Part shown: piece by piece, positions 3,725 to 39,904 of the stretch | How the letters are laid out: the number at the start of each line of letters is the position of its first letter | Numbering within the stretch: position 1 is the first letter of the stretch | Made by a program: the position numbers and the translations under genes | Source: Pseudomonadota bacterium | GTDB taxonomy: Archaea > Thermoplasmatota > SW-10-69-26 > JACQPN01 > JAJPHT01 | Length of the DNA stretch: 64,000 nt | Assembly (NCBI GenBank): GCA_021325135.1 | Contig: JAJPHT010000027.1 | Location: 43,336 to 107,335 of the forward strand | Direction: 5' to 3' | Notes under the pieces: generated by a model | Told to the model about the DNA's origin: nothing | What the model saw: only the letters and a program-made list of their open reading frames with translations | The model's database searches: none

Positions 3725-4227
3725 AGGCTCACATGTCCTCGGGCGAGTTTCGCCCGTGGCGTCTATGCTAACTGGTAGTTTGAATTTTTCCCCGAGGTCG
3801 TTCCTGGGAAGAATTCGTCAGGAAGCACTTCGTACATGGTCCCACCTCGCCTGGCTTGCGAGAAATCCTGTGGAATCTGCTCTAGTTCGGTTCTTCAAAA
3901 CTTAAAGGCTGAACAGAACTTGCTCAATTCTTCGCAAGACATCCAGTAAAGGATAGAAGAAAGTTTCCCGTTATAGCCGCACCCGGTCCACGATCTCCTC
4001 ACCTGGCATCGTGAATGCCATGTGAGAATGAAATCGAGTGGGGCGTGGACGGTCCACTGAGACTTTCGCTGCCCTCTCTGTTATTCATAAGGAGCGGGCC
4101 AGCATTCCACTGCTGAGGAGAATCCTCTTCGGGCGCTCTGTCGTCCCGACTTTGTCGGCACAGAGCATGTGAATGCCGGACGAACCTTCGTCGCGTTGAG
4201 GCCATCCGCAGGCCACAAGGACGGTGC

Positions 4228-11143: not shown

Positions 11144-11186
11144 CCGGGGGGCCTCCTCGTCTCTGCGTCACCACTGGACACGACGG

Positions 11187-12116: not shown

Positions 12117-12157
12117 CGGAGGCGCCTACTGGCGTCCGGGGCAAGAAGGTGTTGGTG

Positions 12158-19929: not shown

Positions 19930-19959
19930 CCTCGGATCGGCGTACCACAATGGGCAACC
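19930..19959 (+). promoter_or_regulatory. Shared upstream motif of the sortase locus, copy 1
   Basis: CCTCGGA-N4-CGTACCACAATGGGCAACC. Confidence 0.6.
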
Positions 19960-19985
19960 CCGACGCCAGGCAAGAGGTTGCCTGC

Positions 19986-20630
19986 ATGAATCGCGCCCCC
20001 CTCGTGGTCCTCCTCCTGTGCGCTGCGCTCGCGTTGACGCCGGTCTCCCTGGCCGGCGGCAACGGCCCCTCCAAGTGCGGGCCGTCCATCACCGCCGTCG
20101 GCCTGAAGCTCGGCGGCGACGACTGTCCCCCTTCGTGCGACGGCAAGGACAAGAAGGACTGCAACCCCTGTGACGAGAAGGATGGCAAGGACTTCAAGTC
20201 CGACGACAAGAAGGACTGCAACTCGTGCGACGAGAAGGATGGCAAGGACTTCAAGTCGGATGACAAGAAGGACTGCAACCCGTGCGACAAGCACGACGGG
20301 AAGGACTTCAAGTCCGACGACAAGAAGTGCCACCCCTGTGACTGCAACCCGTGCGACAAGGACGGCGGTCCCGCCATCTGGAGCGACGACAAGAAGGACT
20401 GCAACCCCTGCGACGAGAAGGACGGCAAGGACTTCAAGTCCGACGACAAGGACTGCCACCCCAACCCGTGCCCCGAGCAGGACAGCAGCACCGTCAAGTC
20501 CGACGGGAACGAGAAGTGCCCGCCCACGCCCCCCACCCAGATCCCCTTCTTCCCCAGCGCGGGCTCGCTGGTGCTGGGCCTCCTGGGCGCGGCCGGCTCC
20601 GTGGGCGCCATCATCCTGAAGCGCCGCTGA
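19986..20630 (+). CDS. Secreted Asp/Lys/Cys repeat protein with IPFFP C-terminal anchor
   Basis: Signal peptide; repeats; PPTPPTQIPFFPSAG + TM + KRR. Confidence 0.85.
   Translation: MNRAPLVVLLLCAALALTPVSLAGGNGPSKCGPSITAVGLKLGGDDCPPSCDGKDKKDCNPCDEKDGKDFKSDDKKDCNSCDEKDGKDFKSDDKKDCNPCDKHDGKDFKSDDKKCHPCDCNPCDKDGGPAIWSDDKKDCNPCDEKDGKDFKSDDKDCHPNPCPEQDSSTVKSDGNEKCPPTPPTQIPFFPSAGSLVLGLLGAAGSVGAIILKRR
20148..20444 (+). repeat. 57-bp coding tandem repeat (DKKDCNPCDEKDGKDFKSD): 4 copies plus 1 variant
   Basis: Units at 20148, 20205, 20262, variant 20319, 20388. Confidence 0.9.
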
Positions 20631-23940: not shown

Positions 23941-24354
23941 TCAGGCGCAGTGGACGTCCGAGGTGTCGGAGGCGACGAGGACGGCGTTGGCCAGGTAGAG
24001 GCCCGCCTGCGTGTAGATGCAGCTCTCGATGAAGTCCCCTTCCCGGGGCGTGGAGTCCCCGTTGCAGTCGTTCATGGGGACGTCGAACTCCCCCTGGACG
24101 ACGCCCGCGCCGGAGGGCTCGAAGCCGAGGTACCGGACGTGGCCCCCCAGGGGCGCGCAGGAGAACGCCCCTGCGGTGAGGATCGTGGAGCAGGCGGAGG
24201 TCGTGCAGACCTCATAGGCGTCGGCGAGGGCCTTGACGTAGCCCAGCGGCGTGTTCCTTCCCCCGTGGCCCTCCAGGCTGGGCGGCTCGCGGGCCGCGGC
24301 GGCAGGAGCGAGCAGCGCGAGCGCGATGACGAGCGTGGTTCCCCCAATCCTCAT
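23941..24354 (-). CDS. Small secreted Cys-containing protein
   Basis: Signal peptide ending AAAA; 6 Cys. Confidence 0.7.
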   Translation of the reverse strand: MRIGGTTLVIALALLAPAAAAREPPSLEGHGGRNTPLGYVKALADAYEVCTTSACSTILTAGAFSCAPLGGHVRYLGFEPSGAGVVQGEFDVPMNDCNGDSTPREGDFIESCIYTQAGLYLANAVLVASDTSDVHCA

Positions 24355-26623: not shown

Positions 26624-26825
26624 GGGCAGGGTAGCCGGGACCTGGCTGAAAAAGGCATCCGGAGCGGAGGGGGATGCCAGGCGGGAGACTTGCCCTTCCC
26701 GCCTGGCTACGGGCACACCTCCTCGCCCGGCCGGGCGGACCGGCGTGGGCCGGGCCGCGCGACGCCGCCCCCAAGACGCCTCAAGGGGATAACCTCCGTT
26801 GGCGGGCCTTGCCGCGCCCCCGGTC

Positions 26826-26843
26826 AGCAAACTTCGCCAACAA
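26826..26843 (+). promoter_or_regulatory. RiPP-locus motif copy 1
   Basis: AGCAA-ACTTCGC-CAACAA. Confidence 0.55.
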
Positions 26844-26891
26844 TGTTGATCATGCACAGAACGCGTCGTTCTCCCTTGGAGGCATACCTCA

Positions 26892-27143
26892 ATGCTCCGA
26901 CTTGCCATGATCGTGTTCGTGATTGCCTACGCCGTCTCTGGGCTGGGAATCGCTGCCGCGTCCGGGAACCCGGCCGTCCTGAGTCCTGTCATTGACAACG
27001 TCATCATTGACAACGTCAACGTGGAGCGTTTCGTCGAGATCCACTGCCCCATCCACGTGTCCTACCTCTGCGGCGAATGCCCCCTGTCAAGCTCGGCCAT
27101 CATGGGCGACCCCGTGGGCTACGTCGAGACGTGCGCGTGGTAA
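26892..27143 (+). CDS. Small secreted Cys-containing protein
   Basis: GGAGG RBS; signal peptide; 4 Cys. Confidence 0.65.
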   Translation: MLRLAMIVFVIAYAVSGLGIAAASGNPAVLSPVIDNVIIDNVNVERFVEIHCPIHVSYLCGECPLSSSAIMGDPVGYVETCAW

Positions 27144-27160
27144 GGCCTGGACGTGTCGCC

Positions 27161-28678
27161 ATGGGACCCCGCTTCCTCCTGATCGTGGCCGCCCTGCTCG
27201 CCCTGGCGAGCCCGTGGGCCGCGGCAGGGGGGCGCCTGGACGCGCCCGTGGCAACCCTCATCGTCAAGGACAGCCACCCCGACTCCTGCGGCCTGCCCGG
27301 ATTCTGTCCGGCCGAGGTCAACGCCTCGGCGGAGGACCCGGGCAACGCGACCGTCGACCTCTCGGACCGCTTCGAGTACGTCGGCGTCGCCACCAACGAC
27401 AGCCTCGTGGAGGACACCACGGGGTACCCGCTCCTGCCCGACTCCGGCCTCGTCGTCCACGGCCGCGACCTCTACGTCCGCCACCCGCTCACCAGCACGG
27501 CGACGCACGCCTACAACAACCACGTCCCGGACTACCCCGGGCGCGACCACGCGGGCGTCGAGATGAGCCCCCAGAACGTCACCCTCAACACGCCCGGCGT
27601 CGCCGGGAACCTCCAGACGACCTACCTCCCCTACAGCAACGACGGGGTGGGCTACGACCAGGAGGGCCCCTTCAACACGCCGGGCGGCAACGACACGGAC
27701 ACCTACCTGGGCCACCCTGAGCTGCCCTGCCACTACGTCGACACCGCCTCCTGCTGGGAGACGAGCGACGGCGCGGACGCCCAGCGCCGCAACGCGACGC
27801 CCGACGTGAACCTCGGCTTCTCCTTCAACACGACGCAGCTGGCCACCGACCCCGCGCGTCTCAACGCGTCGAACCAGTCGGGCTCGTACCCCATTGGCCC
27901 CTCGGTCCCCCCCTGGTCCTACGAGGCGCCCCAGACGATCCCGCTCCCCCTGCCGGGCCAGGCCCCGATCCCCTCCCAGGCGCTCCCCCCGGCCCCGCCC
28001 CCGGCCTCTGCCCCCGCGGCGGCGCACGGCCGCGCGCCCGCGGGCGGCCCGCGCGCCTCGGTCGCGACCGCGCTCATCGCGCCCGCGGCGCCGCGCCTCG
28101 GCGCGGCCCCCCTCGTCGCGGGGCTCGTGGGCGGCAGCGTCGTGCAGGCGCTGCTGAGCCTCTACTCCCGCATCGCGAGCCGCGAGGAGGTCCTGGACTC
28201 CCGGCCGCGCCGCGAGATCCTGGAGCGCGTCGGCGCGCACCGCGTCTGCTCGCTGGCCGAACTGACGCGCGCGACGGGCATGAACCGCAACGCCGTCACG
28301 CACCACCTCCGCAAGCTCGCGGGCTTCGGCCTCGTCCGCCTCGTGCGCGAGGACCGCCAGCTCTTCGTCATGCCCGTGGGCGAGCCCGCCCCCGGCGGCG
28401 ACGTGCCGCTGCGCGTCTCGCGCCACACGCTGCGCAGGCGCATCGTGGACGCGCTGGAGGCGCAGGGCGGGCAGATGGCCCGCGTCGCGCTCCACGATGC
28501 GCTCTCCGACGCGCCCGAGCGCACGCGCAACTACACGCTGCGCCGCATGGAGCAGCTTGGCGTGCTGCGAAGCTGGGAGGACGAGCGCGGCGAGCGCCAC
28601 GTCGCCCTCGCGCGCGCCCCCGCGGCCTCCGCCCCCGGCGCGGCCCGCGGCGCGCTCTCCTCGCCCAACCACGTCTGA
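27161..28678 (+). CDS. Membrane-anchored winged-helix regulator with large extracellular domain
   Basis: Signal peptide, Pro/Ala linker, weak TM, then LYSRI.SREEVLDSRPRREI..SLAELTRATGMNRNAVTHHLRKL and a second degenerate wHTH. Confidence 0.8.
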   Translation: MGPRFLLIVAALLALASPWAAAGGRLDAPVATLIVKDSHPDSCGLPGFCPAEVNASAEDPGNATVDLSDRFEYVGVATNDSLVEDTTGYPLLPDSGLVVHGRDLYVRHPLTSTATHAYNNHVPDYPGRDHAGVEMSPQNVTLNTPGVAGNLQTTYLPYSNDGVGYDQEGPFNTPGGNDTDTYLGHPELPCHYVDTASCWETSDGADAQRRNATPDVNLGFSFNTTQLATDPARLNASNQSGSYPIGPSVPPWSYEAPQTIPLPLPGQAPIPSQALPPAPPPASAPAAAHGRAPAGGPRASVATALIAPAAPRLGAAPLVAGLVGGSVVQALLSLYSRIASREEVLDSRPRREILERVGAHRVCSLAELTRATGMNRNAVTHHLRKLAGFGLVRLVREDRQLFVMPVGEPAPGGDVPLRVSRHTLRRRIVDALEAQGGQMARVALHDALSDAPERTRNYTLRRMEQLGVLRSWEDERGERHVALARAPAASAPGAARGALSSPNHV

Positions 28679-28785
28679 GCCCGATAACGGCCCGTGCGTT
28701 TTGATATCAGATTTGCCTTAGCCGCGGCCCCGGGCCCCTTTTCGGATCGCCTCGGGGCGCCCGGGGGCCCGGAAAGGCGCCTCGC

Positions 28786-28803
28786 GGCAACCGTGGACAA
28801 CAA
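28786..28803 (+). promoter_or_regulatory. RiPP-locus motif copy 2
   Basis: GGCAA-CCGTGGA-CAACAA. Confidence 0.55.
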
Positions 28804-28896
28804 TCGGCGCGCGAAATATCCATGTACGTGACGCCTATACGGAGTGGGTCGCGCCCGCGGCGGTCGCCCGGACGCACCATCTCAGAGGTTTCGCCT

Positions 28897-29250
28897 ATGG
28901 GTGTCAAGAAGAAGCTGAAGGCTCGAGACATCGAGCAGCTGGAGAACACGAGCATCGCGTCCGCCCTCGTCGGGAACGAGATTCTCGACGTGAACAGGCT
29001 CGTCAACGTGGACATCATCAAGACGACCTGTCAGCAGGACTCGGTCTGCGAAGAGACGGTGGAGTGCGTCGTGGTCATCACGTGCGGCTTCACGAGCTGC
29101 GTCAACACCTGCTGCCACAACTGCAGCGTCGGCACGTGCTTCTGCACCGCGGCCTGCACGCTGGTGAGCTGCGACGCCGGCACGGTCTGCGCCTGCACCA
29201 AGGGCGACTCGTGCAACGACGGCTCGGTGTGCGTCGCCCCCACCGGATAG
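28897..29250 (+). CDS. RiPP precursor A1 (117 aa, 16 Cys)
   Basis: Leader KKKLKARDIEQLENTSI; core with 16 Cys and 18 Ser/Thr. Confidence 0.88.
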   Translation: MGVKKKLKARDIEQLENTSIASALVGNEILDVNRLVNVDIIKTTCQQDSVCEETVECVVVITCGFTSCVNTCCHNCSVGTCFCTAACTLVSCDAGTVCACTKGDSCNDGSVCVAPTG

Positions 29251-29332
29251 ACCTGCCCCCACGACGTGAGAAGCATGCAGACACCCTCCTCGCCCGCACG
29301 CTCATCCGCTCCCCTTCCGGAGGACGCCCTCC

Positions 29333-30238
29333 TTGCCTGAGATCGGCGTCCTCGACTTCGGCCTCCACGAGCCTGGCGACGCCCAGCGCTCGCTGCGCAA
29401 CACCATCGCCCTCGCCCAGGGCGTCGAGCCCCTGGGCTTCTCCTCCTTCTGGGTGACGGAGCACCACCAGGAGGGCTACGCGCAGGCCAGCCCCTCCGTG
29501 CTCGCCGCCGCCGTCGCCGCCTCCACGCGCCACATCCAGGTGGGCGTGGGCGGCGTCCTCCTGCCCTACCACCCCCCCTACCGCGTCGCCGGCGACTTCC
29601 GCCTCCTCTCGGCCCTCTACCCCGGGCGCATCCACCTGGGCGTGGGCCGCGGACCCGGCGCCGGGCCCGAGGTCATCCGCGAGCTCGTCCCCGAGGGCAC
29701 GCCGGTCTCCGACCCCGCCTTCTTCGAGGCCCACGCGCGACGCCTCCTGGAGCTTCTCCACGACGAGGACCCCGCCGTGCGCGTGCGCCCCGAAGCGGCC
29801 GCGCCCCCCATGTGGGTCCTCGGGCGCAGCCCCGAGGCCGCGGCCTTCGCCGGGCGCCTGGGCGTCGGCTACGCCTACCCCGAGTTCATCATCCCCGACG
29901 ACCCCGCCGGCTCCCGCACGGGGCGCTGCTTCGACGCGTACCGCCGCGCGTTCACGCCGCGCCCAGGCTCCGAGAAGCCCCGCGCCTGCCTGGGCATCAC
30001 GGCGTACTGCGCCGCGCCCGGCGAGCCCGTGCCCGCGGCGTCCGACGCCAACGTGCACGGCACCGCCGCCCAGTGCCGCGCGGACATCCGCGAGCGCATC
30101 GAGCGCCTCGACCTCGACCTCCTCCTGCTGGGCACGCTGCGCAGCCTCTCCCTGGAGAGGCAGGTGGCCAACCTCGGCCGCCTCGCCCGGGCCCTCCGTC
30201 TCCCCCAGAACCTCCCCCCGCAACGGGTGACCCCATGA
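29333..30238 (+). CDS. Luciferase-like (LLM) flavin-dependent oxidoreductase 1
   Basis: WVTEHH, VGVGGVLLPYH.PYRVA, PGRIHLGVGRG. Confidence 0.9.
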   Translation: MPEIGVLDFGLHEPGDAQRSLRNTIALAQGVEPLGFSSFWVTEHHQEGYAQASPSVLAAAVAASTRHIQVGVGGVLLPYHPPYRVAGDFRLLSALYPGRIHLGVGRGPGAGPEVIRELVPEGTPVSDPAFFEAHARRLLELLHDEDPAVRVRPEAAAPPMWVLGRSPEAAAFAGRLGVGYAYPEFIIPDDPAGSRTGRCFDAYRRAFTPRPGSEKPRACLGITAYCAAPGEPVPAASDANVHGTAAQCRADIRERIERLDLDLLLLGTLRSLSLERQVANLGRLARALRLPQNLPPQRVTP

Positions 30239-31374
30239 CTGCCGCCACCACCTCCGCACCCGCACGCCGAAACGCGACCCTGGACAGCCTGCCCGACATC
30301 CTCGTGAAGCGCGGGCTCGTCGACCGCGCGCGCTTCGTGGACAGCTACGTCTCCATCGAGGACCGCTCGCGCCGCAACCGCAACTTCAAGGTCGTCGTGC
30401 CCGACGGCCCCAAGCTCCTCGTGAAGCAGGGCTCGGAGGGGGCCAACGGAAGCTGGGCCGCCGTCGAGAGCGAGGCGCGCCTGCTGCGCACCGCCGCCAC
30501 CGACCCCGCGTTCGCCTCCATCCGCTGGTTCTCGCCCAAGATCGTCGACTACGACGAGGAGAACCAGATCCTCGCCACCGAGCTGATCCAGCCCGCGACG
30601 ACGCTCACCAAGTACCACGTGAACCTGGGCAACATCCACTTCCCCTCCGAGGCCGGCGACACGCTGGGCCGCCTCGTCGCCTCGTGGCACAACGCCGCGC
30701 GCAAGGCGTGGAAGGGGGGCCGCCTGGAGTACGTCCACCGCTCGCAGCCCTTCGTCGCGCCCACGCTGGAGCAGCTTCGCCGCGCGCCCGCCCAGCCCAC
30801 CGACGTCCGCTCGTCGTACCTCAAGCTCGTCAAGGAGATCGTGCCCTACGAGCGCCACGTCGCGCAGATCGCCGAGTGGGAGAAGGAGCACAAGGGCGTC
30901 GGCCACGGCGACATCCGCTGGGACAACGTCCTCATCACCGAGGGCGGCGGCCGCGGCGGCAACATGAACTTCCGCCTCATCGACTGGGAGATGGCCTACG
31001 TGGGCGACCCCGCGTGGGACGTCGCGTGCTACCTGGGCGAGTACCTGCGCCTCTGGTTCATGAGCACGCTGGGGCGGCAGGTCACCAGCGTCGCGGAGGT
31101 GGAGTCCAAGGCGAAGTTCAAGCTCGCCGACACGCACGAGTCCATCGCCGCCTTCCTCGACAGCTACAGCCGGAAGTCGGAGATCGCCGCAGGCAAGAGG
31201 CCCAACCTCGTGCCGCGCCTCCACGCCTACCTCCCCTACGTCGTGCTGCTCATCTGCTACGAGTCGCTCCAGCGCCAGGCCCAGTTCCCGCCGGTCTGCA
31301 AGGTCGCCATCGAGATGGCCCGCGACGCGATCGAGGACCCCCAGACGAAGCACCACGAGTGGTTCGGCCTTTGA
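30235..31374 (+). CDS. APH-family Ser/Thr kinase, LanK-like dehydratase subunit
   Basis: SRRNRNF, LVKQ, HGDIRWDNVL, IDWE...GDPAWD; ATGA-coupled to LLM1. Confidence 0.88.
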   Translation: MTAATTSAPARRNATLDSLPDILVKRGLVDRARFVDSYVSIEDRSRRNRNFKVVVPDGPKLLVKQGSEGANGSWAAVESEARLLRTAATDPAFASIRWFSPKIVDYDEENQILATELIQPATTLTKYHVNLGNIHFPSEAGDTLGRLVASWHNAARKAWKGGRLEYVHRSQPFVAPTLEQLRRAPAQPTDVRSSYLKLVKEIVPYERHVAQIAEWEKEHKGVGHGDIRWDNVLITEGGGRGGNMNFRLIDWEMAYVGDPAWDVACYLGEYLRLWFMSTLGRQVTSVAEVESKAKFKLADTHESIAAFLDSYSRKSEIAAGKRPNLVPRLHAYLPYVVLLICYESLQRQAQFPPVCKVAIEMARDAIEDPQTKHHEWFGL

Positions 31375-31384
31375 GGTGATTGTC

Positions 31385-32392
31385 ATGAATCCTGTCCAAA
31401 AGCTCTGCGAAGAGGTCTCGTTCGTCTCCGAGACGCGCGTCCGCATCCGAACCATGGAGATCGACGGCGAGCGCCTCCAGAACCGCTTCACGAAGTCCGT
31501 CGAGGGCTACCCCGCCATCGTGGGGGGCCTGGCCCAGCTCGTCTACGACGAGTTCTACTGCGAGCGCGACCCGGGCCGCGGCGCCTACGCGTTCGTGGAG
31601 GACCGCATCCTGCGCGACGAGTTCCACCTCGCGCTGCGCCGCGCCAGCGCCTCGCGCCACATCTGGACCTCCGGATGGACGCAGGAGGCGGACCAGGGGG
31701 ACAAGCTCCTCCTGCGCAACCGCAACGGCGCCGCCGTGCTCGCGAACCGGGACGCCGTGCGCCCCGCCGCCGACGGGACGATGGCCGTGAAGGTCACGCC
31801 CGACTCCGTGCCCACGCAGGCCGGGTGGGTCTACTTCTTCGGCGAGACGGCCCACCCCGCCGAGGCCCAGACGACGGTCCGGCTCTACTGGAACCTCTGC
31901 GCGCAGGGCGCCGTGCCCTTCGCGGGGACGCTCACGCGCGTCCTCAACAAGGCCGAGGTCCCCTTCCAGATGAAGGTCGTCGAGGACCCGCAAGGGTTCC
32001 GCCGCGCGGACGGCGGCGTGCTCTACGTGCCCCAGACGAGCTGGGACGCGCTGCGCGCGAACCTCCCCGAGATCTACGCGCAGATCGGCCCCTACCTCAA
32101 GCGGAAGACGCCCCTCTTCGCGCTGGAGATGGCGCCCGGCCTGGGCCTCGCGGAGGACCCCGGCAACGGCGAGAGCTTCGGCATGTCCCGCTCGCGCCTC
32201 GTCGCGGAGGGCCTCTACGACGCGCTCAACGTCGGCGCGACCGACGCCGACGCGCGCCGCGAGGCCATCGAGCGCCGCTTCTCCCGCGCCGGGCTCGACC
32301 CCGCGCGCCCCCACCTCAACCCCGGAAGCCGCGCCGAGTACGTCGCGGCCCTTCCCGCGAACCCCATCCTTGCCCTGGGTGACCTGCCATGA
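31385..32392 (+). CDS. HopA1-like phosphoSer/Thr lyase, LanY-like
   Basis: RLYWN, FQMKV, RADGGVLY, GLGLAEDP..GESFGMSR, P.LN motifs of the HopA1 family. Confidence 0.88.
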   Translation: MNPVQKLCEEVSFVSETRVRIRTMEIDGERLQNRFTKSVEGYPAIVGGLAQLVYDEFYCERDPGRGAYAFVEDRILRDEFHLALRRASASRHIWTSGWTQEADQGDKLLLRNRNGAAVLANRDAVRPAADGTMAVKVTPDSVPTQAGWVYFFGETAHPAEAQTTVRLYWNLCAQGAVPFAGTLTRVLNKAEVPFQMKVVEDPQGFRRADGGVLYVPQTSWDALRANLPEIYAQIGPYLKRKTPLFALEMAPGLGLAEDPGNGESFGMSRSRLVAEGLYDALNVGATDADARREAIERRFSRAGLDPARPHLNPGSRAEYVAALPANPILALGDLP

Positions 32393-33705
32393 GCATCTAC
32401 CTCGAGAACGCCGCCGCCATCGCCGACCAGCTCTGCGAGGACGCCCACGTGGCCAACGGCCGCGCCAACTGGGTGTCCCGCTCCGTGCCCTACGCCCAGC
32501 GCAGGCCCGACGGGAAGTCCCCCGACCTCCTGCCCGCGCTGGAGCCGCTCAACCCGTCGTTCTATTCTGGGACCGCGGGCATCGCGGTCTTCCTCGCGCG
32601 CCTCCACCAGTACACCAAGGACCCGCGCCACGCGCGCATGGCGAAGGCGGCCATCCGCCACTCCATCGAGCACGCCTTCGACGTGGTCCCCGCCTCCGAG
32701 CGGCCCATGCCCATCGGCACGAGCTGGCAGAAGGGGTTCTACATCGGCAGCATGGGCATCGCGTGGGCCACCGAGGAGGTCGGCCGCGCGCTGGGCTCCG
32801 ACGACATCCGCCGCGAGGGGCGCAGCCTCTTCGCGCGCGTCGCCAGCGAGCCCTCCGCCACCGAGTTCGACCTCATGTTCGGCGTCGCGGGCTCCGTCGC
32901 CGCGTCGCTGAGCCTCGCCGAGCAGGGCTACCAGGGCGCCCAGGAGTTCGCCGTGGCCATGGGCGACTGGCTCCTCTCCAACGCGCGCAAGGAGGAGCAG
33001 GGCTGGTCGTGGCTCGGCTACGGCTCGTCGCCCAACGCGCCCGCGCTGCTGGGCCTCAGCCACGGCACCTCCGGCGTCGCGGTCGTGATGCAGCGCCTCT
33101 ACGAGGCCACCAAGGACGAGCGCTACCTGGAGGCGGTGGAGCAGTCCATCGCCTACGAGCGCGCGAAGTTCGACGCGCAGGAGGGCAACTGGCCCCACTT
33201 CGGCATCCCCGCGCAGCAGGACGGGCGGCCCGGCTTCTTCTCCACCTGGTGCCACGGCGCGCCCGGTGTCGGCCTCGCCCGCGCCTTCCTCTACCCCCGG
33301 ATGCGCGACGCGCGCATGCTCGACGAGATCCGCGACGCGTGGAAGAACACCGTGCGCTCCGTGGAGCTGGACCTGGAGCGGCCCGGACGCGACTTCCAGT
33401 ACTGCCACGGCGTGGGCGGCAACACCGAGTGCCTCTGGGAGATGGCCAGCGTCCTCGACCCCGCCAAGGGCGCCAAGCTCGCGCGCGACGTCGCGCAGTA
33501 CGGCGTCGAGCGCTACGGCAAGGGCGCGGCGGGCAAGTGGGGCGGGTGGGCCGGCTGGCCGACGGCCGTCTCGCACCGCTACCACCCGCCGCTGATCACC
33601 GGCCTCGCGGGCGTCGGGTACTTCCTGCTGCGGGTCCACGACCCGGCCCGCGTGCCCACCGTCCTGCTGCCCGCCGTCTCCATGGACTACGCCGCTGCGC
33701 GTTAG
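32389..33705 (+). CDS. Stand-alone LanC lanthionine cyclase
   Basis: GxxG repeats: YSGTAG, GLSHGTSG, WCHGAPG, YCHGVGG, LITGLAG; Zn ligands present. Confidence 0.92.
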   Translation: MSIYLENAAAIADQLCEDAHVANGRANWVSRSVPYAQRRPDGKSPDLLPALEPLNPSFYSGTAGIAVFLARLHQYTKDPRHARMAKAAIRHSIEHAFDVVPASERPMPIGTSWQKGFYIGSMGIAWATEEVGRALGSDDIRREGRSLFARVASEPSATEFDLMFGVAGSVAASLSLAEQGYQGAQEFAVAMGDWLLSNARKEEQGWSWLGYGSSPNAPALLGLSHGTSGVAVVMQRLYEATKDERYLEAVEQSIAYERAKFDAQEGNWPHFGIPAQQDGRPGFFSTWCHGAPGVGLARAFLYPRMRDARMLDEIRDAWKNTVRSVELDLERPGRDFQYCHGVGGNTECLWEMASVLDPAKGAKLARDVAQYGVERYGKGAAGKWGGWAGWPTAVSHRYHPPLITGLAGVGYFLLRVHDPARVPTVLLPAVSMDYAAAR

Positions 33706-33708
33706 CCA

Positions 33709-33726
33709 GGCAAGGTCCGCAAACAA
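33709..33726 (+). promoter_or_regulatory. RiPP-locus motif copy 3
   Basis: GGCAA-GGTCCGC-AAACAA. Confidence 0.5.
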
Positions 33727-33791
33727 TGGAGAAGTAGGCTCGGGACGCTATCCGGCGGGGCAGATCGCTGCCCCGTTTCAGAGGTTCGCCT

Positions 33792-34151
33792 ATGGGTGTC
33801 AAGAAGAAGCTGAAGGCTCGAGACATCGAGCAGCTGGAGAACACGAGCATCGCGTCCGCCCTCATCGGGAACGAGATCCTCGACGTGAACAGACTGGTCA
33901 ACGTCGACATCCTCAAGACGACGTGCCAGAAGGATTCCGTGTGCGAGGAGACCGTGGAGTGCGTCGTCGTCGTCACGTGCGGCATCACGAGCTGCCTCAA
34001 CACGTGTTGCCACGATTGCAGCTTCGGCACGTGCGTCTGCACGCAGGCGTGCACGGCCATCAGCTGCGACGCGGGCACGCTGTGCGCTTGCACGAAGGAG
34101 AACACGTGCAACAACGGCTCCGTGTGCGTCGCCCCCACCGGATCGTTCTAG
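33792..34151 (+). CDS. RiPP precursor A2 (119 aa, 16 Cys)
   Basis: Paralog of A1 with all 16 Cys positions conserved. Confidence 0.9.
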   Translation: MGVKKKLKARDIEQLENTSIASALIGNEILDVNRLVNVDILKTTCQKDSVCEETVECVVVVTCGITSCLNTCCHDCSFGTCVCTQACTAISCDAGTLCACTKENTCNNGSVCVAPTGSF

Positions 34152-34215
34152 GCTTGCCCCCTTCCAGCCCGAACACCTCCACCTTTCCCCCCTTGCCCCT
34201 TGCTGGTGACCGACG

Positions 34216-35187
34216 ATGGACGTAGGAATCCTCGACTTCGGAACGCGACGCGACCGATCCGACCCCCGGAGCCGGATGGAGCTCATGCTGGAGCGCGCGC
34301 TGCGCGCCGAGGCGTTGGGCTTCGACGAGTTCTGGGTCACGGAGCATCACAATCCCGAGGCCCACCACTCGGCGCCCCTCGTCGCCATCACCTACCTCGC
34401 CTCCCGCACCACGACGCTGCGCGTCGGCTCGGGCGGCATCCTCCTCCCCTACGTGAGCCCGTACCGCGTGGCGGAGGACTTCTTCGCCCTCCACTCCCTC
34501 TTCCCCGGCCGCATCGAGCTTGGCGTGGGGCCCGGCCCCGGGACGTACCCGGAGGCCGTGCGCGCCATCCTGGATCGCGCGCCCTCCGAGCCGCCGCAGG
34601 GCGAGTACCACCAGAAGGCGCGCCGCCTGGCGTCGTACCTGCGCCGCGAGACGCCCGAAGGCTTCGAAGGCCTGGAGCCCACGCCGCCCGTGGAGGCCAA
34701 GGCCCCGCCCCTCACCATCCTGGGCGTGAGCAAGCGCGCGGTGGACCTCGCCATCGAGCTGGACGCGAGCTTCACCTACGGCTTCTTCATCGCCGACCCC
34801 GACCCCCTCTACTCGCGGGCCCACGAGATCCTCTCCGACTTCCGCGCCCGCCGCCGCAGCGCGGGCCAGCGCGCGGGCGTCGCCTTCATGGCGCTGGCCG
34901 GGCGCAACGAGGCGCAGGCCGCCGAGTGGGAGCGCGTGAACCGCGGCACCGGCAGCCGCGGCCACCTCTTCGTGGGCTCCGTGAAGCAGGTCCGCACGGA
35001 GTTCGAGGAGCTTCGCGCGGCCCTCCAGCCGGACCTCGCCCTCCTGGGCATGAGCCCCGGCGTCCCCCACGCCCACCAGATGCTGTCCATCGAGGGGCTC
35101 GCGAAGGCGCTCCTCCCCGGCCAGAGCCGCAAGCAGGCGCCCGAGCCGCCCCTCGCCGTCGCACGCACACAGGAGAGCATGACATGA
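34216..35187 (+). CDS. Luciferase-like (LLM) flavin-dependent oxidoreductase 2
   Basis: WVTEHH, VGSGGILLPY.SPYRVAEDF, FPGRIELGVG. Confidence 0.9.
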   Translation: MDVGILDFGTRRDRSDPRSRMELMLERALRAEALGFDEFWVTEHHNPEAHHSAPLVAITYLASRTTTLRVGSGGILLPYVSPYRVAEDFFALHSLFPGRIELGVGPGPGTYPEAVRAILDRAPSEPPQGEYHQKARRLASYLRRETPEGFEGLEPTPPVEAKAPPLTILGVSKRAVDLAIELDASFTYGFFIADPDPLYSRAHEILSDFRARRRSAGQRAGVAFMALAGRNEAQAAEWERVNRGTGSRGHLFVGSVKQVRTEFEELRAALQPDLALLGMSPGVPHAHQMLSIEGLAKALLPGQSRKQAPEPPLAVARTQESMT

Positions 35188-35390
35188 AGCGAAGGCTGAC
35201 CGCCAAGGATGTGGAATCGCTGGAGAACACGAGCATCGGAGGATCCCTCGGCGTCCTCGACGTCGGCGTGGTCGACGCCGTCGTCACCCCCAACGTCTGC
35301 GCTGCCGGACCGGGCCCCGTCGGCCCGATCTGGGACGAGGTGACGGCGTGCATCTGCCGCTACTCGTGCGGCTACCGGAGCTACGCGTGA
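35184..35390 (+). CDS. RiPP precursor A3 (68 aa, 4 Cys)
   Basis: Leader MKRRLTAKDVESLENTSIGG; ATGA overlap with LLM2. Confidence 0.85.
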   Translation: MKRRLTAKDVESLENTSIGGSLGVLDVGVVDAVVTPNVCAAGPGPVGPIWDEVTACICRYSCGYRSYA

Positions 35391-35415
35391 GCCGGCAAGG
35401 GGACGCTCGGTCGCT

Positions 35416-35433
35416 GGCAACCGTCGCCAACAA
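35416..35433 (+). promoter_or_regulatory. RiPP-locus motif copy 4
   Basis: GGCAA-CCGTCGC-CAACAA followed by GCGTTAGGC. Confidence 0.6.
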
Positions 35434-35480
35434 GCGTTAGGCGACTGCGCCCCCATGGCGCAGCCACAGGAGAGGCTGTC

Positions 35481-35765
35481 ATGAAGCGAAGGCTGAGCGC
35501 GAAGGACGTCGAGTCGCTGGAGAACACGAGCATCGGAGGCGTCCTGGGCCTCCTTGACGTCGGGACGGCCGTCGGCGTCTACCCCGGGTTCGTCTGCGTC
35601 GGCCACACGTCGCCCCCCTGCCGGCAGGACACGACCATCGGCGTCCCGTGCCCGGTCGCCTCCGTCTGCGGCGAGACGGCGCCCTGCACCGTCGTGGTCT
35701 GCCCCGACACGTGCGCCGACACCTGCTGCGCCCACAGCGACGTGATCCGCCCCCTGGAGCCGTAG
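35481..35765 (+). CDS. RiPP precursor A4 (94 aa, 9 Cys)
   Basis: Shared leader; Cys/Thr-rich core; AGGAGAGG RBS. Confidence 0.9.
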   Translation: MKRRLSAKDVESLENTSIGGVLGLLDVGTAVGVYPGFVCVGHTSPPCRQDTTIGVPCPVASVCGETAPCTVVVCPDTCADTCCAHSDVIRPLEP

Positions 35766-35778
35766 GCGCAGAGGCCTC

Positions 35779-35796
35779 GGCAAGGGTCGGCAACAA
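35779..35796 (+). promoter_or_regulatory. RiPP-locus motif copy 5
   Basis: GGCAA-GGGTCGG-CAACAA followed by GCGTTAGGC. Confidence 0.6.
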
Positions 35797-35842
35797 GCGT
35801 TAGGCATCCAGTTTCCCATCGGGCGCCCACAGGAGAGGTTGC

Positions 35843-36121
35843 ATGAAGCGAAGGCTGAACGCGAAGGACGTCGAGTCGCTGGAGAACACGAGCATCGGAA
35901 GCGTCCTGGGCGTCATCGACACCGGCGTCGCCGACAAGCTCCTCACGGGCATCGTGTGCGCCGCCAACACGACGCCCATCTGCGATCACGGGACGGCCTG
36001 CCCCGTCGACTCGGTCTGCCACGAGACGGCGGAATGCACCATCGTCGTCTGCACCAACTCGTGCCACGACACCTGCTGCGCCTACGACAGCACGAACCTG
36101 TTCCGGCCCCTGGGGCCGTAG
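35843..36121 (+). CDS. RiPP precursor A5 (92 aa, 9 Cys)
   Basis: Shared leader and core motif. Confidence 0.9.
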   Translation: MKRRLNAKDVESLENTSIGSVLGVIDTGVADKLLTGIVCAANTTPICDHGTACPVDSVCHETAECTIVVCTNSCHDTCCAYDSTNLFRPLGP

Positions 36122-36142
36122 GTTGACCGGAGGAATGACCAC

Positions 36143-36427
36143 ATGAAGCGAAGGCTGAGCGCGAAGGACGTGGAGTCGCTGGAGAACACGAGCATCGGAG
36201 GCGTGCTGGCGATTCTGGACACGGGCGTGACCAACGTCACGACCTTCATCTGCGTCGCCAACACGACGCCCATCTGCGAGCACGGCACCGGCGTCGGGTG
36301 CCAGATCGACTCGATCTGCCACGAGACTGCGGAGTGCACCATCGTCGTCTGCACGAACTCATGCCACGACACCTGCTGCGCCTACGACAGCACGGGCGCG
36401 ATCCGGCCCGCGCTGACGTCGCCGTAG
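36143..36427 (+). CDS. RiPP precursor A6 (94 aa, 9 Cys)
   Basis: Shared leader; core nearly identical to A5; GGAGG RBS. Confidence 0.9.
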   Translation: MKRRLSAKDVESLENTSIGGVLAILDTGVTNVTTFICVANTTPICEHGTGVGCQIDSICHETAECTIVVCTNSCHDTCCAYDSTGAIRPALTSP

Positions 36428-36456
36428 GACGTCCGGAGCACGCCGAGGGGTGACGA

Positions 36457-37833
36457 TTGGAGATCGAGCGCGTGGAACTCGGGCTGGCCTCGCGGCTGGC
36501 GTTCCGGGACCTGGTCTACACGTCGGACCGGGGCATTCCCCTCGTGGGGTGCCCCGCCGTCCACCGCTACCTGGAGGTGGACCAGGACACCATCCACGGC
36601 ATCCGGGCCCTCCAGTCGACGGCCACCATCGGCGAGGCCGAGAGCCGCATCCTCGCGGAGACGGGCGAGGAGGTCGACCTCGTCTACCTCGCCAACGTCC
36701 TCCTGGACCGCGGCTTCATCGCCACCGTGGACGGCGAGGAGGTGGGGGCCGACCTGGTGAAGAAGACGCCCTCGCTCCTCACCCGCGTCCCCCCCGAGCG
36801 CGTCGCGTTCCTCCGCAACCCCGTCTTCGTGGCCGCGGTCGTGGGCCTCACCGCCTTCGCCATGCTCCTCCTCGCGACGGAGCCCACGCTGCGCCCCCGG
36901 CGCGAGGACCTCTTCCTCCTCGACAATCCGCTGGAATCGTTCCTGCTGAGCTTCGGGACCCTCCTTCTGCTCGCGGGGCTCCACGAGCTTTCCCACTACT
37001 TCATGGCGTGGAGCTACGGCGTCCGCTCCTCGTTCAGCCTGTCCCACCGGTTCTACGTCATCGTCATGCAGACGAACGTGACCAACGTCTGGACGCTCCC
37101 GCGCCGCCAGCGCATCGCCGTCTTCCTGGCGGGCATCGGGTTCAACCTCGTGGTCCTCAGCGCGGCCGTCGTGGCGCTGGCCGTCTCCGACGCGGGCTTC
37201 CATCAGCTCTCCTTCACCCAGGAGGCCGTCCTGCGCTGGATCGCCTACCTCAGCTGGATCCCCGTCATGTTCCAGTTCTTCGTCTTCGCGCGCACGGACT
37301 TCTACTACGTCCTCATGACGCTCGTGGGGGAGCGCAACCTCACGGCGGACGCGCGCGCCTACCTCCGGTTCCTCGCGGGGCGCCTGTGGCGCTCCATCCG
37401 CTCGCGCGAGCGCCGCGCCTGCCCCCACTGCCAGCGCGCCGGCATCCCGGAGGACCCGTTCTGCTACGGCTGCAAGCGGCCGCTGCCGGTGTCGGACCCC
37501 AACCTCTACCCCTTCACGTACAAGAGCCAGTGGCGGCTCCTCGTCTTCTCGGTCGTCCTCTTCCTGGGCACCATCCTGGGCACGATGTTCTTCGTGTTCT
37601 TCGTGCTCAGCAGCATGCCCAAGCTCCTCCTCTCGGGCGCCTTCGTGACGATGTACGGCTATCGCACGGGCCACTGGACGCAGATGGCGGAGGGGCTCCT
37701 CGTCGTCGCCATCGTGGGCTTCCAGGGCGCGTTCATGGCGCGCTCCATGGGCGGCAAGGTCAAGGGCTGGATCGTGGGCGCGCGCAAGCGCTGGCAGGAC
37801 CGCCGCGCAGGCAAGGCTCGCCAACAATCGTGA
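36457..37833 (+). CDS. M50/site-2-like membrane metallopeptidase with possible N-terminal RRE and a Zn ribbon
   Basis: HELSH in a TM, AGIGFN, RTDFYY, CPHC..CYGC; N-terminal strands plus three helices ending LLDRGFI. Confidence 0.8.
   Translation: MEIERVELGLASRLAFRDLVYTSDRGIPLVGCPAVHRYLEVDQDTIHGIRALQSTATIGEAESRILAETGEEVDLVYLANVLLDRGFIATVDGEEVGADLVKKTPSLLTRVPPERVAFLRNPVFVAAVVGLTAFAMLLLATEPTLRPRREDLFLLDNPLESFLLSFGTLLLLAGLHELSHYFMAWSYGVRSSFSLSHRFYVIVMQTNVTNVWTLPRRQRIAVFLAGIGFNLVVLSAAVVALAVSDAGFHQLSFTQEAVLRWIAYLSWIPVMFQFFVFARTDFYYVLMTLVGERNLTADARAYLRFLAGRLWRSIRSRERRACPHCQRAGIPEDPFCYGCKRPLPVSDPNLYPFTYKSQWRLLVFSVVLFLGTILGTMFFVFFVLSSMPKLLLSGAFVTMYGYRTGHWTQMAEGLLVVAIVGFQGAFMARSMGGKVKGWIVGARKRWQDRRAGKARQQS
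37810..37827 (+). promoter_or_regulatory. RiPP-locus motif copy 6 (inside the M50 3' end)
   Basis: GGCAA-GGCTCGC-CAACAA. Confidence 0.55.
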
Positions 37834-37868
37834 TGGCCGCCAAGGCGATTCCCCGGGCGGTGACGACC

Positions 37869-38156
37869 TTGCGTGCCATCGCCAGCATCTCCTTCGTGCT
37901 CTTCGCGCTCCTCCTGGGCGCCGTTCCCGCCGCCTCGGCGGAGCCCGTCCTCTCCAGGATCATCGACGACAACGGCCTTCCCACCGTCATCCCCCAGTTC
38001 GACTGCAACAGCAACACGCTCTGGTGTCACGTCCCGTGCGACAACGGCCCGGTGTCCGCCTTCTGCGACTACTACGGCACCCACGGCGGCGCGAGCTGCA
38101 TCATCCTCATCCGCCTCACGAGCACCTGCATCAACCCGCTCCCCGGGCAGGGGTGA
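37869..38156 (+). CDS. Secreted 6-Cys miniprotein B1
   Basis: TTG after GGTGA (alternative ATG 37833); signal peptide; ends TSTCINPLPGQG. Confidence 0.85.
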   Translation: MRAIASISFVLFALLLGAVPAASAEPVLSRIIDDNGLPTVIPQFDCNSNTLWCHVPCDNGPVSAFCDYYGTHGGASCIILIRLTSTCINPLPGQG

Positions 38157-38161
38157 TGCCG

Positions 38162-38437
38162 ATGCGCGCCCTCCTGAGCGTCTCCCTCGTTCTCCTCGCG
38201 CTCCTGCTGAGCGCGGTCCCCGCCTCCGCGGCGCAGACCGTCTCCGACCTCGGCGGCCCCCTGGACCAGTTCGTCCGCCTCGACTGCAAGACCCGCGATC
38301 CCTTCTGCCACTTCCGTTGCACGGGCGGCCCGGTCGGGCTCCTGTGCGACTACGACTCCACGCACGGCACGGTGAGCTGCGTCGTGCTGATCCGCCTCAC
38401 GAGCACCTGCATCAATCCGCTCCCCCAGCACGGGTGA
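38162..38437 (+). CDS. Secreted 6-Cys miniprotein B2
   Basis: MRALLSVSL signal peptide; GPV, HG, TSTCINPLP. Confidence 0.88.
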   Translation: MRALLSVSLVLLALLLSAVPASAAQTVSDLGGPLDQFVRLDCKTRDPFCHFRCTGGPVGLLCDYDSTHGTVSCVVLIRLTSTCINPLPQHG

Positions 38438-38442
38438 TCTCC

Positions 38443-38721
38443 ATGCGCGCCCTCCTCGGCATCCCCCTCGTCCTCCTGATCCTCCTGAGCGTCGTCCCCG
38501 CCGCCTCGGCGGACTCCGTCGTCCTCACGGACGTCCTGGACAACGGCCTCCCCACCGTCGTCCCGCGCTTCGACTGCGGCAGCAACACGCTCTGGTGCCA
38601 CTTCCAGTGCGACGGAGGCCCCGTCTCGACCTTCTGCGACTGGAACGGCTCCCACGGCCCCGCGAGCTGCATCATCCTCATCCGCTTCACGAGCACCTGC
38701 GTCAACCCGCTTCCCCAGTGA
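38443..38721 (+). CDS. Secreted 6-Cys miniprotein B3
   Basis: Close paralog of B1. Confidence 0.88.
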   Translation: MRALLGIPLVLLILLSVVPAASADSVVLTDVLDNGLPTVVPRFDCGSNTLWCHFQCDGGPVSTFCDWNGSHGPASCIILIRFTSTCVNPLPQ

Positions 38722-38741
38722 TCCCCCCAAGAGGCAAGACC

Positions 38742-38996
38742 ATGCGAACCCTGACCACCCTCTCCATCGTCCTCCTCACGATCTTCTGCGCCGTGCCCGC
38801 GTCCGCCGCGCCGGTCGCCCACGCCACCGACCTGCTCAGCCTCGACTGCGCGGCGGCGACCTCGTACTGCTGGGTCCCCTGTCGGCCCGGCCCCGTGGGC
38901 ATCATGTGTGGCCACGACACCCCGGACCACGGCTACGCCGGCTGCATCGTCTTCATCACCTACACGAGCACCTGCATCAACCCGACCCCCCTCTGA
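38742..38996 (+). CDS. Secreted 6-Cys miniprotein B4
   Basis: Signal peptide; same Cys frame; TSTCINP. Confidence 0.88.
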   Translation: MRTLTTLSIVLLTIFCAVPASAAPVAHATDLLSLDCAAATSYCWVPCRPGPVGIMCGHDTPDHGYAGCIVFITYTSTCINPTPL

Positions 38997-39007
38997 GGCC
39001 TGATATC

Positions 39008-39283
39008 ATGCGCGCCACGATCGGAATCGCCCTCGCCCTGCTGACGGTCCTCTTCGCCGGCCTCGCCTCGGCGGAGCCCCTCGCCTACGTGATCGAAAGG
39101 TCCGTGATCGATCCCTCGCAGATCGACGCCGTCTGCGTCGTGCCCTCCTGCTGGCCGACCTGCGATCCCGGCCCCGTGGCCGTCTGGTGCAACCACGACA
39201 CGCCCGGGCACGGCCGTGCGGCCTGCCTGGTGTTCGTCACGTTCACGAGCACCTGCATCAACCCGCTCCCCCAGGGCTCGTGA
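39008..39283 (+). CDS. Secreted 6-Cys miniprotein B5
   Basis: Signal peptide; GPV, HDTP.HG, TSTCINPLP. Confidence 0.88.
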   Translation: MRATIGIALALLTVLFAGLASAEPLAYVIERSVIDPSQIDAVCVVPSCWPTCDPGPVAVWCNHDTPGHGRAACLVFVTFTSTCINPLPQGS

Positions 39284-39499
39284 GGCGGCCGCCGGCGGCC
39301 GGGCCCTGCAACCGGGCCTGAGCGCGGGCGCACCCCACGCGGTGGGAGGAGCGTGGCTTTACCTCCGGCGGGCGCAGAAGACCTCGGGATTCCTCCTGGG
39401 ATCGGCCCGCCGCCAGGCCCCCGATGTCTCCCCCACAATGCCTCGACAGCCTCCCCCGTTCTCCCTCGCCTGGCGGCGGGCCGAGCGCCCCCTTTTTCT

Positions 39500-39904
39500 T
39501 CACGGACACCTCGACCCGGGATCGTCCGGATCGAGGACCGTCACGCTCGCCTGCCCCGCCATCACGCGGGGCCCCTGCGCGAAGAGGGTCCACCGCCCGG
39601 GGAGGTCGATGGAGCCGCGCAGCGTGACGTTCCGCGTCTCGTGGGCGCCGAGATCGACGTCCGCCTGCGCGACGTAGCCATATTGCTGCGCGTAGACGCC
39701 CACCGACGCCCGGCCAGCGCCGCCCCCGGGGTTCCGGAGCGCGAGCGTCGCCTCCAGGGGCGCCCCCCGCCCGATGCACGCGGAGGCGACCGTGAAGGAG
39801 ACGACCTGCGCGTCGGAGAGCGGAGGCGGCGCGGCCGCGTCCGGCGTCGGCGCGAGGCACCCCGCGAGGGGAAGGGCCACGAGGAGGCCAAGCGCCGGAC
39901 GCAC
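39500..39904 (-). CDS. Small lipoprotein, Ig/CARDB-like
   Basis: LAGC lipobox; LRNPG and LGAHETRNVT beta-sandwich pattern. Confidence 0.65.
   Translation of the reverse strand: MRPALGLLVALPLAGCLAPTPDAAAPPPLSDAQVVSFTVASACIGRGAPLEATLALRNPGGGAGRASVGVYAQQYGYVAQADVDLGAHETRNVTLRGSIDLPGRWTLFAQGPRVMAGQASVTVLDPDDPGSRCP

Follow-up and report, generated by a model that had tools for sequence, protein, structure and literature searches.

A probable class Vb lanthipeptide pathway with six Cys-rich precursors on an accessory island of a Thermoplasmatota archaeon

The window analysed here, a stretch of 64,000 nucleotides of contig JAJPHT010000027.1 (assembly GCA_021325135.1), carries between its positions 26826 and 39283 a group of genes that an earlier note had described as an archaeal class V-like lanthipeptide cluster. 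These genes probably encode a real lanthipeptide pathway of class Vb, belonging to a family specific to the Thermoplasmatota and carried on a mobile island. The gene order given in that note, A1-LLM1-kinase-HopA1-like-LanC-A2-LLM2-A3-A4-A5-A6-M50-B1..B5 on one strand (A, precursor peptides; LLM, luciferase-like monooxygenases; B, secreted Cys-rich peptides), was recovered, with all 18 open reading frames (ORFs) on the forward strand and the ATGA overlaps at 30235, 32389 and 35184 present as claimed. The M50 and B1 genes overlap by a further 1 nt at 37833. Two genes of this interval had been left unnamed, B0 and a membrane-anchored winged-helix regulator whose longest ORF begins at 27077 (Table 1).

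An APH-type kinase and a HopA1-like lyase had been proposed as the split dehydratase of class V, acting with LanC, and this is supported by family matches and intact catalytic residues. Pfam hidden Markov models assigned the three proteins to APH, HopA1 and LANC_like (Table 1), the HopA1 protein being that encoded at 31385-32392. LanK scores 53.6 bits against APH (PF01636), over the cut-off, with its catalytic motifs intact. Its top NCBIfam match is the class V kinase LxmK (NF038156, 5e-20), at 72 bits against an equivalog cut-off of 315, and its sole PDB match is the kinase chain 9dk1_A; LanY matches the LxmY lyase of the same entry (9dk1_B, 4e-10). Residues R166, K197, R207 and Y214 of LanY, for which an alternative GTG start lies at 31376, are unchanged in 11 archaeal-clade homologues and are spaced as R187, K219, R229 and Y236 of CaoY, the first three of which were shown by mutagenesis to be important for the lyase (PMC9486802). 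LanC retains the His acid and the Cys/Cys/His zinc ligands in its SHG, WCHG and CHG motifs. By analogy with characterised homologues, from which each step of the mechanism is drawn, LanK would phosphorylate core Ser and Thr residues of A1-A6, LanY would eliminate the phosphate to give dehydroalanine (Dha) or dehydrobutyrine (Dhb), and the zinc LanC would add Cys thiols to these to form (methyl)lanthionines. The observations made here are of the genes, motifs, leader family, recognition-element fold and synteny.

Every ORF of the island was accounted for, and none encodes LanD, LanX or a methyltransferase. In PMC12291118 and PMC12328550, LanK and LanY with LanC and without LanD/LanX constitute the described subclass Vb, exemplified by SmoK/SmoY/SmoC, which make mSmoA (Pei et al., 2022, JACS 144:17549, as cited there). 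The island has the features of this subclass, namely a stand-alone APH kinase, a HopA1 lyase (PF17914), a zinc LanC, no LanD or LanX, and precursors with a leader and a Ser/Thr/Cys core. The absence of LanD, an N-methyltransferase and the exporter LanT, which had been described as unlike typical class V clusters, therefore holds, but the lack of a decarboxylase is not an oddity, since it is what defines class Vb. In the place of LanT stands a protease that had been left uninterpreted, an M50 intramembrane metalloprotease fused to a recognition element (RRE) for peptides that are ribosomally synthesised and then modified post-translationally (RiPPs). Two other classes were considered and rejected. 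Class Va (lanthidin) is not compatible with the lack of LanD and LanX, nor with the lack of any precursor having a C-terminal Cys for aminovinyl-methylcysteine (AviMeCys). Class II would require LanM with a fused dehydratase domain, and the LanM model TIGR03897 covers LanC only at model positions 549-932, the cyclase part.

The core chemistry of the cluster is thus already known and its novelty lies in a distinct archaeal family. HopA1 genes were found in 5 of the 401 Thermoplasmatota genomes searched, this genome having four such loci, a congener two, and three genomes of a distant family one each. At the other three loci of this genome and the two of the congener the precursors are short and an RRE-M50 is absent. 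The leader found in A1-A6 (the LENTS leader) recurs at two distant-family loci, on precursors of 181 aa with 21 Cys and 207 aa with 18 Cys that are followed by M50, kinase, lyase and cyclase genes. Profile search and contig look-ups placed this leader at nine loci in all (the named hosts, four of four, being Thermoplasmatota), and an RRE-M50 is encoded at all six leader loci long enough to judge. The synteny search in archaeal genomes that had been suggested thus recovered related clusters: the order precursor-M50-kinase-lyase-cyclase is kept in genomes G246 and G312 and in a forest-soil contig, the last of which also carries two MsnO8-family LLMs and so has the full enzyme content of the present cluster. 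Two truncated contigs have precursor(s), M50 and kinase together, one of them with an additional gene in between. Tree building set the archaeal kinases and cyclases apart from 17 soil-bacterial homologues (support 100/100 and 100/99); when plasmid sequences were added to these unrooted trees the split mostly persisted, with two long-branch bacterial rows falling among or beside the archaeal enzymes. The archaeal enzymes therefore appear to group apart from the sampled bacterial ones, short of monophyly, and no donor is claimed. Bacterial kinase-lyase-cyclase loci have precursors of 412 aa with up to 41 Cys and a leader unrelated to LENTS, and neither an RRE-M50 nor a LENTS leader was found in the 18 bacterial loci for which DNA was fetched. 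On these sequence comparisons, a Thermoplasmatota family defined by the LENTS leader, RRE-M50, optional MsnO8-type oxygenases and cores with Ser/Thr and Cys at 1:1 appears to be new.

Several observations were made beside this family. The three further loci of this genome (C42:65385-68953, C7:36311-39737 and C50:64357-67512) encode short precursors with a DIExLE/ME helix common to their leaders; the LanC of C50, a locus orthologous to one in congener G002, has CCG in place of CHG. Bacterial loci of Verrucomicrobiota, Chloroflexota and Acidobacteriota (L013:1383-2621, L010:735-1976 and L022:5866-6498) have giant repetitive Thr/Cys/Pro precursors, one with 50 Thr beside its 41 Cys, and possibly represent an undescribed family; the L010 precursor and a second L013 ORF have a common N-terminal domain of ~110 aa. 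At L049:1024-11686 an archaeal-clade kinase-lyase-cyclase set lies beside four 2-oxoglutarate-Fe(II) oxygenases, one YcaO and an M50 bearing two RREs in tandem, the precursor being seen just as a 30-aa leader-like fragment.

The step of the proposed pathway that is least certain is the role of the oxygenases. LLM1 and LLM2 match the Pfam Bac_luciferase model (8e-28 and 1e-28). LLM1 passes the cut-off of the MsnO8 model TIGR03558 (166.95 bits) and LLM2 falls just under it, both forest-soil homologues being above; F420-type models reach at most 49 bits, against 163-193 for TIGR03558. No F420 ligase was found in the 94%-complete genome, in which two flavin reductases are present, and oxygenation is for this reason likelier than reduction to D-Ala. 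LLM1 and LLM2, fed FMNH2 by reductases encoded elsewhere, would oxidise some thioethers to sulfoxides, as the luciferase-like monooxygenase GarO does in actagardine, with which they are likened by function although GarO is a single enzyme in a class II pathway. By this analogy the chances of sulfoxidation are about even. The enzymes may instead act on leftover dehydro residues by epoxidation or hydroxylation, or convert Dha to D-Ala by reduction in the manner of LanJc. The cores hold 0-3 surplus Ser/Thr, and class Va clusters use an F420 reductase of the LLM fold (PMC9486802). The F420-model scores and the failure to find an F420 ligase led to rejection of a LanJc-type F420H2-dependent reductase, and thioethers are the most abundant oxidisable groups expected. 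For an activity other than sulfoxide formation there is also the top structural match of the LLMs, PDB 4us5, which we take to be MsnO8, an alkene epoxidase. Taken together these alternatives are less probable than sulfoxidation, although they keep appreciable weight. A LuxAB-like heterodimer of LLM1 and LLM2 was considered and is not supported, as the pairs look independently duplicated. A bacterial arrangement with oxygenase tailoring was seen on a plasmid of Deinococcus sp. QL22 (L098:2673-8780), which encodes a kinase, a HopA1-LanC fusion, an S8 protease and an LLM.

That A1-A6 are Cys-rich precursors was borne out by a common leader and by the composition of their cores. The leader has the invariant pattern K-x2-L-x-A-x-D-x-E-x-LENTSI (LxAKDIExLENTS form). 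In the Cys-spanning cores of 24 precursors there are 233 Cys and 238 Ser/Thr, with a ratio of 1.04 +/- 0.16, rho of 0.91 and a partial r of 0.69 once length is removed, statistics that overstate independence because the precursors are related sequences. Ser/Thr make up 23% of non-Cys core residues, against 9.5% in the neighbouring enzymes, and the ratio of ~1:1 is kept both in Ser-rich cores (G246, 16 Ser and 4 Thr) and in Thr-only cores (L044). Between A1 and A2, residue class is kept at 16 of 16 Cys and 18 of 18 Ser/Thr positions but at 28 of 42 others (p=0.006), and A4 shows a similar trend when compared with A5 or A6 (p about 0.02). This suggests that A1-A6 are substrates of LanK, LanY and LanC, and the near 1:1 ratio, as predicted by one ring per Cys, that most Cys end in (methyl)lanthionines. 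There would then be up to 16 rings in A1 and A2, 9 in A4-A6 and 4 in A3, and these would probably be interlocked. The cores are acidic, with a high content of Val and Ile, and in this they differ from cationic lantibiotics; such acidic, hydrophobic products are unlikely to be nisin-like cationic antibiotics. Many family members have tails in which Arg accompanies two hydrophobic residues (DVIRP in A4, LLDxIRRG in G312), a possible follower. Of the description of the products as unusually large polycyclic thioether peptides, the many rings are likely, but large precursors are not unique given those of the bacterial loci. Word-index searches found no homologues of the A or B peptides, relatives of the former emerging only when profiles were searched exhaustively and genomes were scanned; no match was confirmed in a metagenome scan with the A leader, and Atlas structure matches for A1 and B3 were below useful scores. 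As separate observations, five G312 precursors share a C-terminal tail of the LLDxIRRG type (L035:5112-5735 and 11070-12618), and in the largest there are heptad repeats of the CRSVDGD type, in which each Cys is matched by one Ser.

The A peptides might be only partly modified, with few lanthionines and most Cys in disulfides or bound to metal, as in metallothionein- or knottin-like mini-proteins. The acidic, very Cys-dense cores with CxC and CC motifs and the abundance of secreted Cys-rich peptides in this genome are compatible with such products, but Ser/Thr follows Cys at ~1:1 over 24 divergent cores, whether Ser-rich or Thr-only, hydroxyl positions are conserved as a class, and a cytoplasmic route without a signal peptide disfavours disulfides. 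Partial modification is therefore unlikely.

The M50 protein gives a weak match to Pfam Peptidase_M50 (1.6e-4); in five homologues HEL-x-H and D281 are invariant and the Cys4 ribbon is kept, and there are five hydrophobic segments. Its N-terminal domain was modelled with a predicted local distance difference test score (pLDDT) of 91 as three strands and three helices, and its top structural matches are lasso-peptide B1 RREs and PqqD (6jx3_B, Z 8.7, rmsd 2.8 A over 79 aligned residues; TbiB1, Z 8.0; PqqD, Z 7.6), while Foldseek with this domain gave no match under 0.001. In one relative the domain is present in duplicate. The N-terminus is thus predicted to fold as an RRE. A model of its complex with the leader scored 0.66, against 0.02 for the best control (contacts agreeing to 86% or more, partner pLDDT of 53 or higher), on a pass mark reached by 58 of 80 solved pairs and 2 of 110 mismatched pairs; this pass may reflect likeness to solved RRE-leader complexes. 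In the model, leader residues 1-10 lie on strand 3 and helix 3 (contacts at RRE residues 32-37 and 66-77), the usual RRE site, and the RRE is predicted to bind the A leader. RRE-M50 fusions remove leaders in daptides (PMC10036551) and EpeP of epipeptides is thought to cleave and export. By analogy, the RRE would hold the first 10-13 leader residues and the protease would cleave the leader at the membrane, a step that may be linked to export in the way proposed for EpeP. A C39 peptidase was not found in the genome. M50 is therefore probably the leader peptidase, acting through its RRE. The identification of the cluster as a daptide cluster was rejected, there being no DapB/C/D/M enzymes in the island and no C-terminal Thr in the precursors. 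Relatives of the M50 domain were also noted in an 834-aa protein with a radical-SAM-like CxxxCxxC near its start (L064:8855-11359) and, by a similar match, in Zixiibacteriota (L067).

M50 could instead be mainly a signalling site-2 protease, in which leader or product bound at the RRE triggers cleavage of the winged-helix regulator with feedback on six upstream motifs, the leader being removed elsewhere. A membrane-anchored helix-turn-helix (HTH) gene lies in this island and beside the G312, L048 and L050 clusters, and the upstream motif is almost confined to the island. Nevertheless, no such regulator was seen in the G246 insert, adjacency may be due to chance with about nine paralogues in the genome, and the N-out topology of the regulator is atypical for site-2 substrates. 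With the daptide fusions as precedent for leader removal, a signalling role appears improbable.

Other points weigh against the pathway as reconstructed, in addition to the LxmK score and the relatedness of the precursors given above. Characterised LanC enzymes usually close a handful of rings, not 16. Many Thr directly precede a Cys and would have to pair elsewhere, ring topology is not readable from sequence and the product is a predicted one. The M50 protein scores 49-72 bits against the daptide model NF041824, for which the cut-off is 300. The LLMs are missing from G246 and G312, making them optional, and LLM1 and LLM2 do not pair one-to-one with the forest-soil copies.

B1-B5, which had also been taken into the cluster, did not stand as lanthipeptide precursors. 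They have signal peptides, six invariant Cys and a TSTC motif, lack the LENTS leader and resemble ~61 small ORFs of this genome with a signal peptide and 4-18 Cys. No homologue was found in 5.8 billion clusters, a single marginal match was obtained in 151 genomes, and all sister clusters lack them; the predicted structure of B3 (pLDDT 46) was unusable. The motif RGCAA-N8-AACAA precedes B0, A1, A2, A4, A5 and B1, six copies where 0.03 are expected, and occurs seven times in the whole genome, the seventh at C39:37781. It may serve as a promoter element or be bound by the membrane-anchored HTH protein; a bacterial promoter scan gave nothing relevant. A second set of substrates for LanK, LanY and LanC might be seen in B1-B5 from their translational coupling to M50, the common motif and the conserved Cys and TSTC, but with classic signal peptides and no relatives in sister clusters this is very unlikely, and B0 and B1-B5 are taken to be secreted disulfide peptides that belong to the island and share its regulation, possibly acting in immunity or as partners. 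The ~61 secreted Cys-rich ORFs (for example at 19950-20630 and 23941-24354 of the window), with the ~nine membrane-anchored winged-helix proteins, form a large unexplained repertoire of the lineage.

The host, from sequence markers, is an uncultured soil archaeon of the Thermoplasmatota. RadB and an archaeal ValRS score above their cut-offs among the window proteins, and the deoxyhypusine synthase is 94% identical to that of a Thermoplasmata metagenome-assembled genome (MAG) and 78-94% identical to those of Thermoplasmatota MAGs. The marker-gene check thus confirmed an archaeal contig, and it proved neither bacterial nor chimeric: a second assembly has the same set of cluster genes in unchanged order, and in the probable source soil run the cluster is tiled by contigs at an even depth of 16-24, zero letters differing. 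Short pieces identical to the cluster are present in mine metagenomes from a separate study. Bacterial contamination or mis-assembly, to which a 5.6% contamination estimate for the genome and the bacterial origin of the closest named relatives of LanY might point, is counted as already refuted by these markers, the even depth, native codon use, flanks syntenic with a congener and homologous clusters in four other Thermoplasmatota MAGs.

In that congener, G002 (99% complete), the NYN gene directly abuts the homologue of the gene at 39500-39904. As the same site is empty there, the block spanning B0 to B5 represents 12.9 kb gained or lost, likely in a recent event. The proposal that the cluster was not recently acquired is thus upheld by composition, which is native (codon adaptation at the 28th-92nd percentile), but not by the absence of the block from the same site in G002. 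A search of 20 other genomes of the class did not find the A leader, and neither an integrase gene nor a target-site duplication was identified in the island. The G246 copy (L034:5633-11260), whose precursor has SCDCxSNLAN repeats, is flanked by dnaK and dnaJ, and the G+C content at third codon positions is 0.63-0.75 in its enzyme genes, against 0.92 for dnaK, which suggests a recent insertion. Taken together, these observations suggest exchange among archaea rather than long residence. Elsewhere in the window, positions 1-4000 have a lower GC content (0.63-0.67) and are the tail of a region at about 18000-47000 of C39 that has ORFs judged by eye to be integrase-like, primase-like and antirestriction-like, and that holds the seventh motif copy.

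Table 1. Features of the island and its immediate surroundings, in window coordinates.
Feature	Position	Strand	Evidence
Accessory island, approximate bounds	26630..39490	none	missing between NYN gene and 39500-39904 gene in congener G002
Upstream motif RGCAA-N8-AACAA copy 1, 5' of B0	26826..26843	+	motif count
B0, 83-aa peptide, hydrophobic N-terminus, 4 Cys, weakly B-like	26892..27143	+	
Winged-helix regulator: signal peptide, outer domain, transmembrane segment, ArsR-type HTH; candidate motif binder	27164..28678 (approximate)	+	
Upstream motif copy 2, 5' of A1	28786..28803	+	
Precursor A1, 117 aa; core 16 Cys, 18 Ser/Thr	28897..29250	+	
LLM1, MsnO8-family flavin monooxygenase, TTG start	29333..30238	+	TIGR03558 192.6 bits, cut-off 167
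LanK, APH-fold Ser/Thr kinase (putative); HGDIRWDN, IDWE	30235..31374	+	Pfam APH 3e-14
LanY, HopA1-type phospho-lyase (putative); R166, K197, R207, Y214	31385..32392	+	Pfam HopA1 1e-35
LanC, stand-alone zinc cyclase (putative); LSHG, WCHG, YCHG	32389..33705	+	Pfam LANC_like 6e-47
Upstream motif copy 3, 5' of A2	33709..33726	+	
Precursor A2, 119 aa, 85% identity to A1; core 16 Cys, 18 Ser/Thr	33792..34151	+	
LLM2, MsnO8-family flavin monooxygenase, 36% identity to LLM1	34216..35187	+	TIGR03558 162.9 bits, just below cut-off
Precursor A3, 68 aa; core 4 Cys, 4 Ser/Thr	35184..35390	+	
Upstream motif copy 4, 5' of A4	35416..35433	+	
Precursor A4, 94 aa; 9 Cys, 10 Ser/Thr; DVIRP C-terminal tail	35481..35765	+	
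Upstream motif copy 5, 5' of A5	35779..35796	+	
Precursor A5, 92 aa; 9 Cys, 11 Ser/Thr	35843..36121	+	
Precursor A6, 94 aa; 9 Cys, 12 Ser/Thr	36143..36427	+	
RRE-fused M50 intramembrane metalloprotease: N-terminal RRE, HELSH, RTDFYY Asp, Cys4 ribbon; proposed leader peptidase	36457..37833	+	
Upstream motif copy 6, at M50 end, 5' of B1	37810..37827	+	
B1, secreted 6-Cys peptide, not a LanA	37833..38156	+	
B2, secreted 6-Cys peptide	38162..38437	+	
B3, secreted 6-Cys peptide	38443..38721	+	
B4, secreted 7-Cys peptide	38742..38996	+	
B5, secreted 6-Cys peptide	39008..39283	+	

Of the known systems, the closest in description is class Vb SmoK/SmoY/SmoC, which shares the stand-alone kinase, lyase and zinc LanC, the lack of LanD/LanX and the expectation of (methyl)lanthionine rings only, and differs from the island in its host and leader and in lacking the six precursors with 4-16 Cys, the RRE-M50 and the two MsnO8-family oxygenases. 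Class V products in PMC12328550 and PMC12291118 come from actinobacteria only. Class Va systems (lexapeptide, cacaoidin, pristinin A3 and rosins) have a LanK/LanY dehydratase with the same lyase residues; in contrast to these the island has LanC and LLMs that are not of the F420 type, and lacks LanD, LanX, an N-methyltransferase and the C-terminal Cys for AviMeCys. Of 1,340 HopA1 proteins mined by Eyles et al. (2021; PMC8153245), about 20% have LanC close by or as a fusion partner, a layout shared by the soil-bacterial loci found here, although that set was described for bacterial phyla only. Daptide MpaP/DapP and epipeptide EpeP have an RRE fused to an intramembrane M50 that removes the leader, as proposed for the island, and the daptide leader ELExMEAP resembles DIExLENT (PMC10036551, PMC10885120); the island differs from daptides in the extra Cys4 ribbon of its M50, in having no DapB/C/D/M enzymes and in the absence of a terminal Thr. 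The haloarchaeal class II archalans are likewise archaeal lanthipeptides, but are made by LanM with short cores and a Kx(Y/F)(D/E)xx(F/Y) leader; they are confined to Halobacteria, and class V and LanC are unmentioned in PMC10105419 and PMC12144867. No paper was found on archaeal class V or on RRE-M50 with LanK/LanY, the clusters mined by Pei et al. (2022) lying outside this negative.

Characterised archaeal lanthipeptides are all of class II and haloarchaeal, with none of class V listed in genome surveys, and the present family places class V chemistry in uncultured Thermoplasmatota of soil and sediment. The enzymology is known from Streptomyces, and bacteria have comparably large precursors. 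The kit is complete: to its six substrates and three core enzymes are added a protease predicted to bind the leader and oxygenases that are optional, and the pairing with an RRE-M50 would be a maturation route absent from the lanthipeptide literature searched. We tentatively propose, at somewhat less than even confidence, that in a lanthipeptide lineage proper to the Thermoplasmatota one LanC closes 9-21 rings per chain on precursors of up to ~200 residues, giving thioether-locked and partly sulfoxide mini-proteins from which an RRE-guided site-2 protease removes the leader, and perhaps a C-terminal follower, and which it releases. On that reading Archaea would have a first lanthipeptide route that does not use LanM, and its products would rank among the most cross-linked lanthipeptides known. 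If rings follow the 1:1 stoichiometry, the family tests the reach of a single LanC (9-16 rings here, 21 in a relative) and may offer a scaffold for highly constrained peptides.

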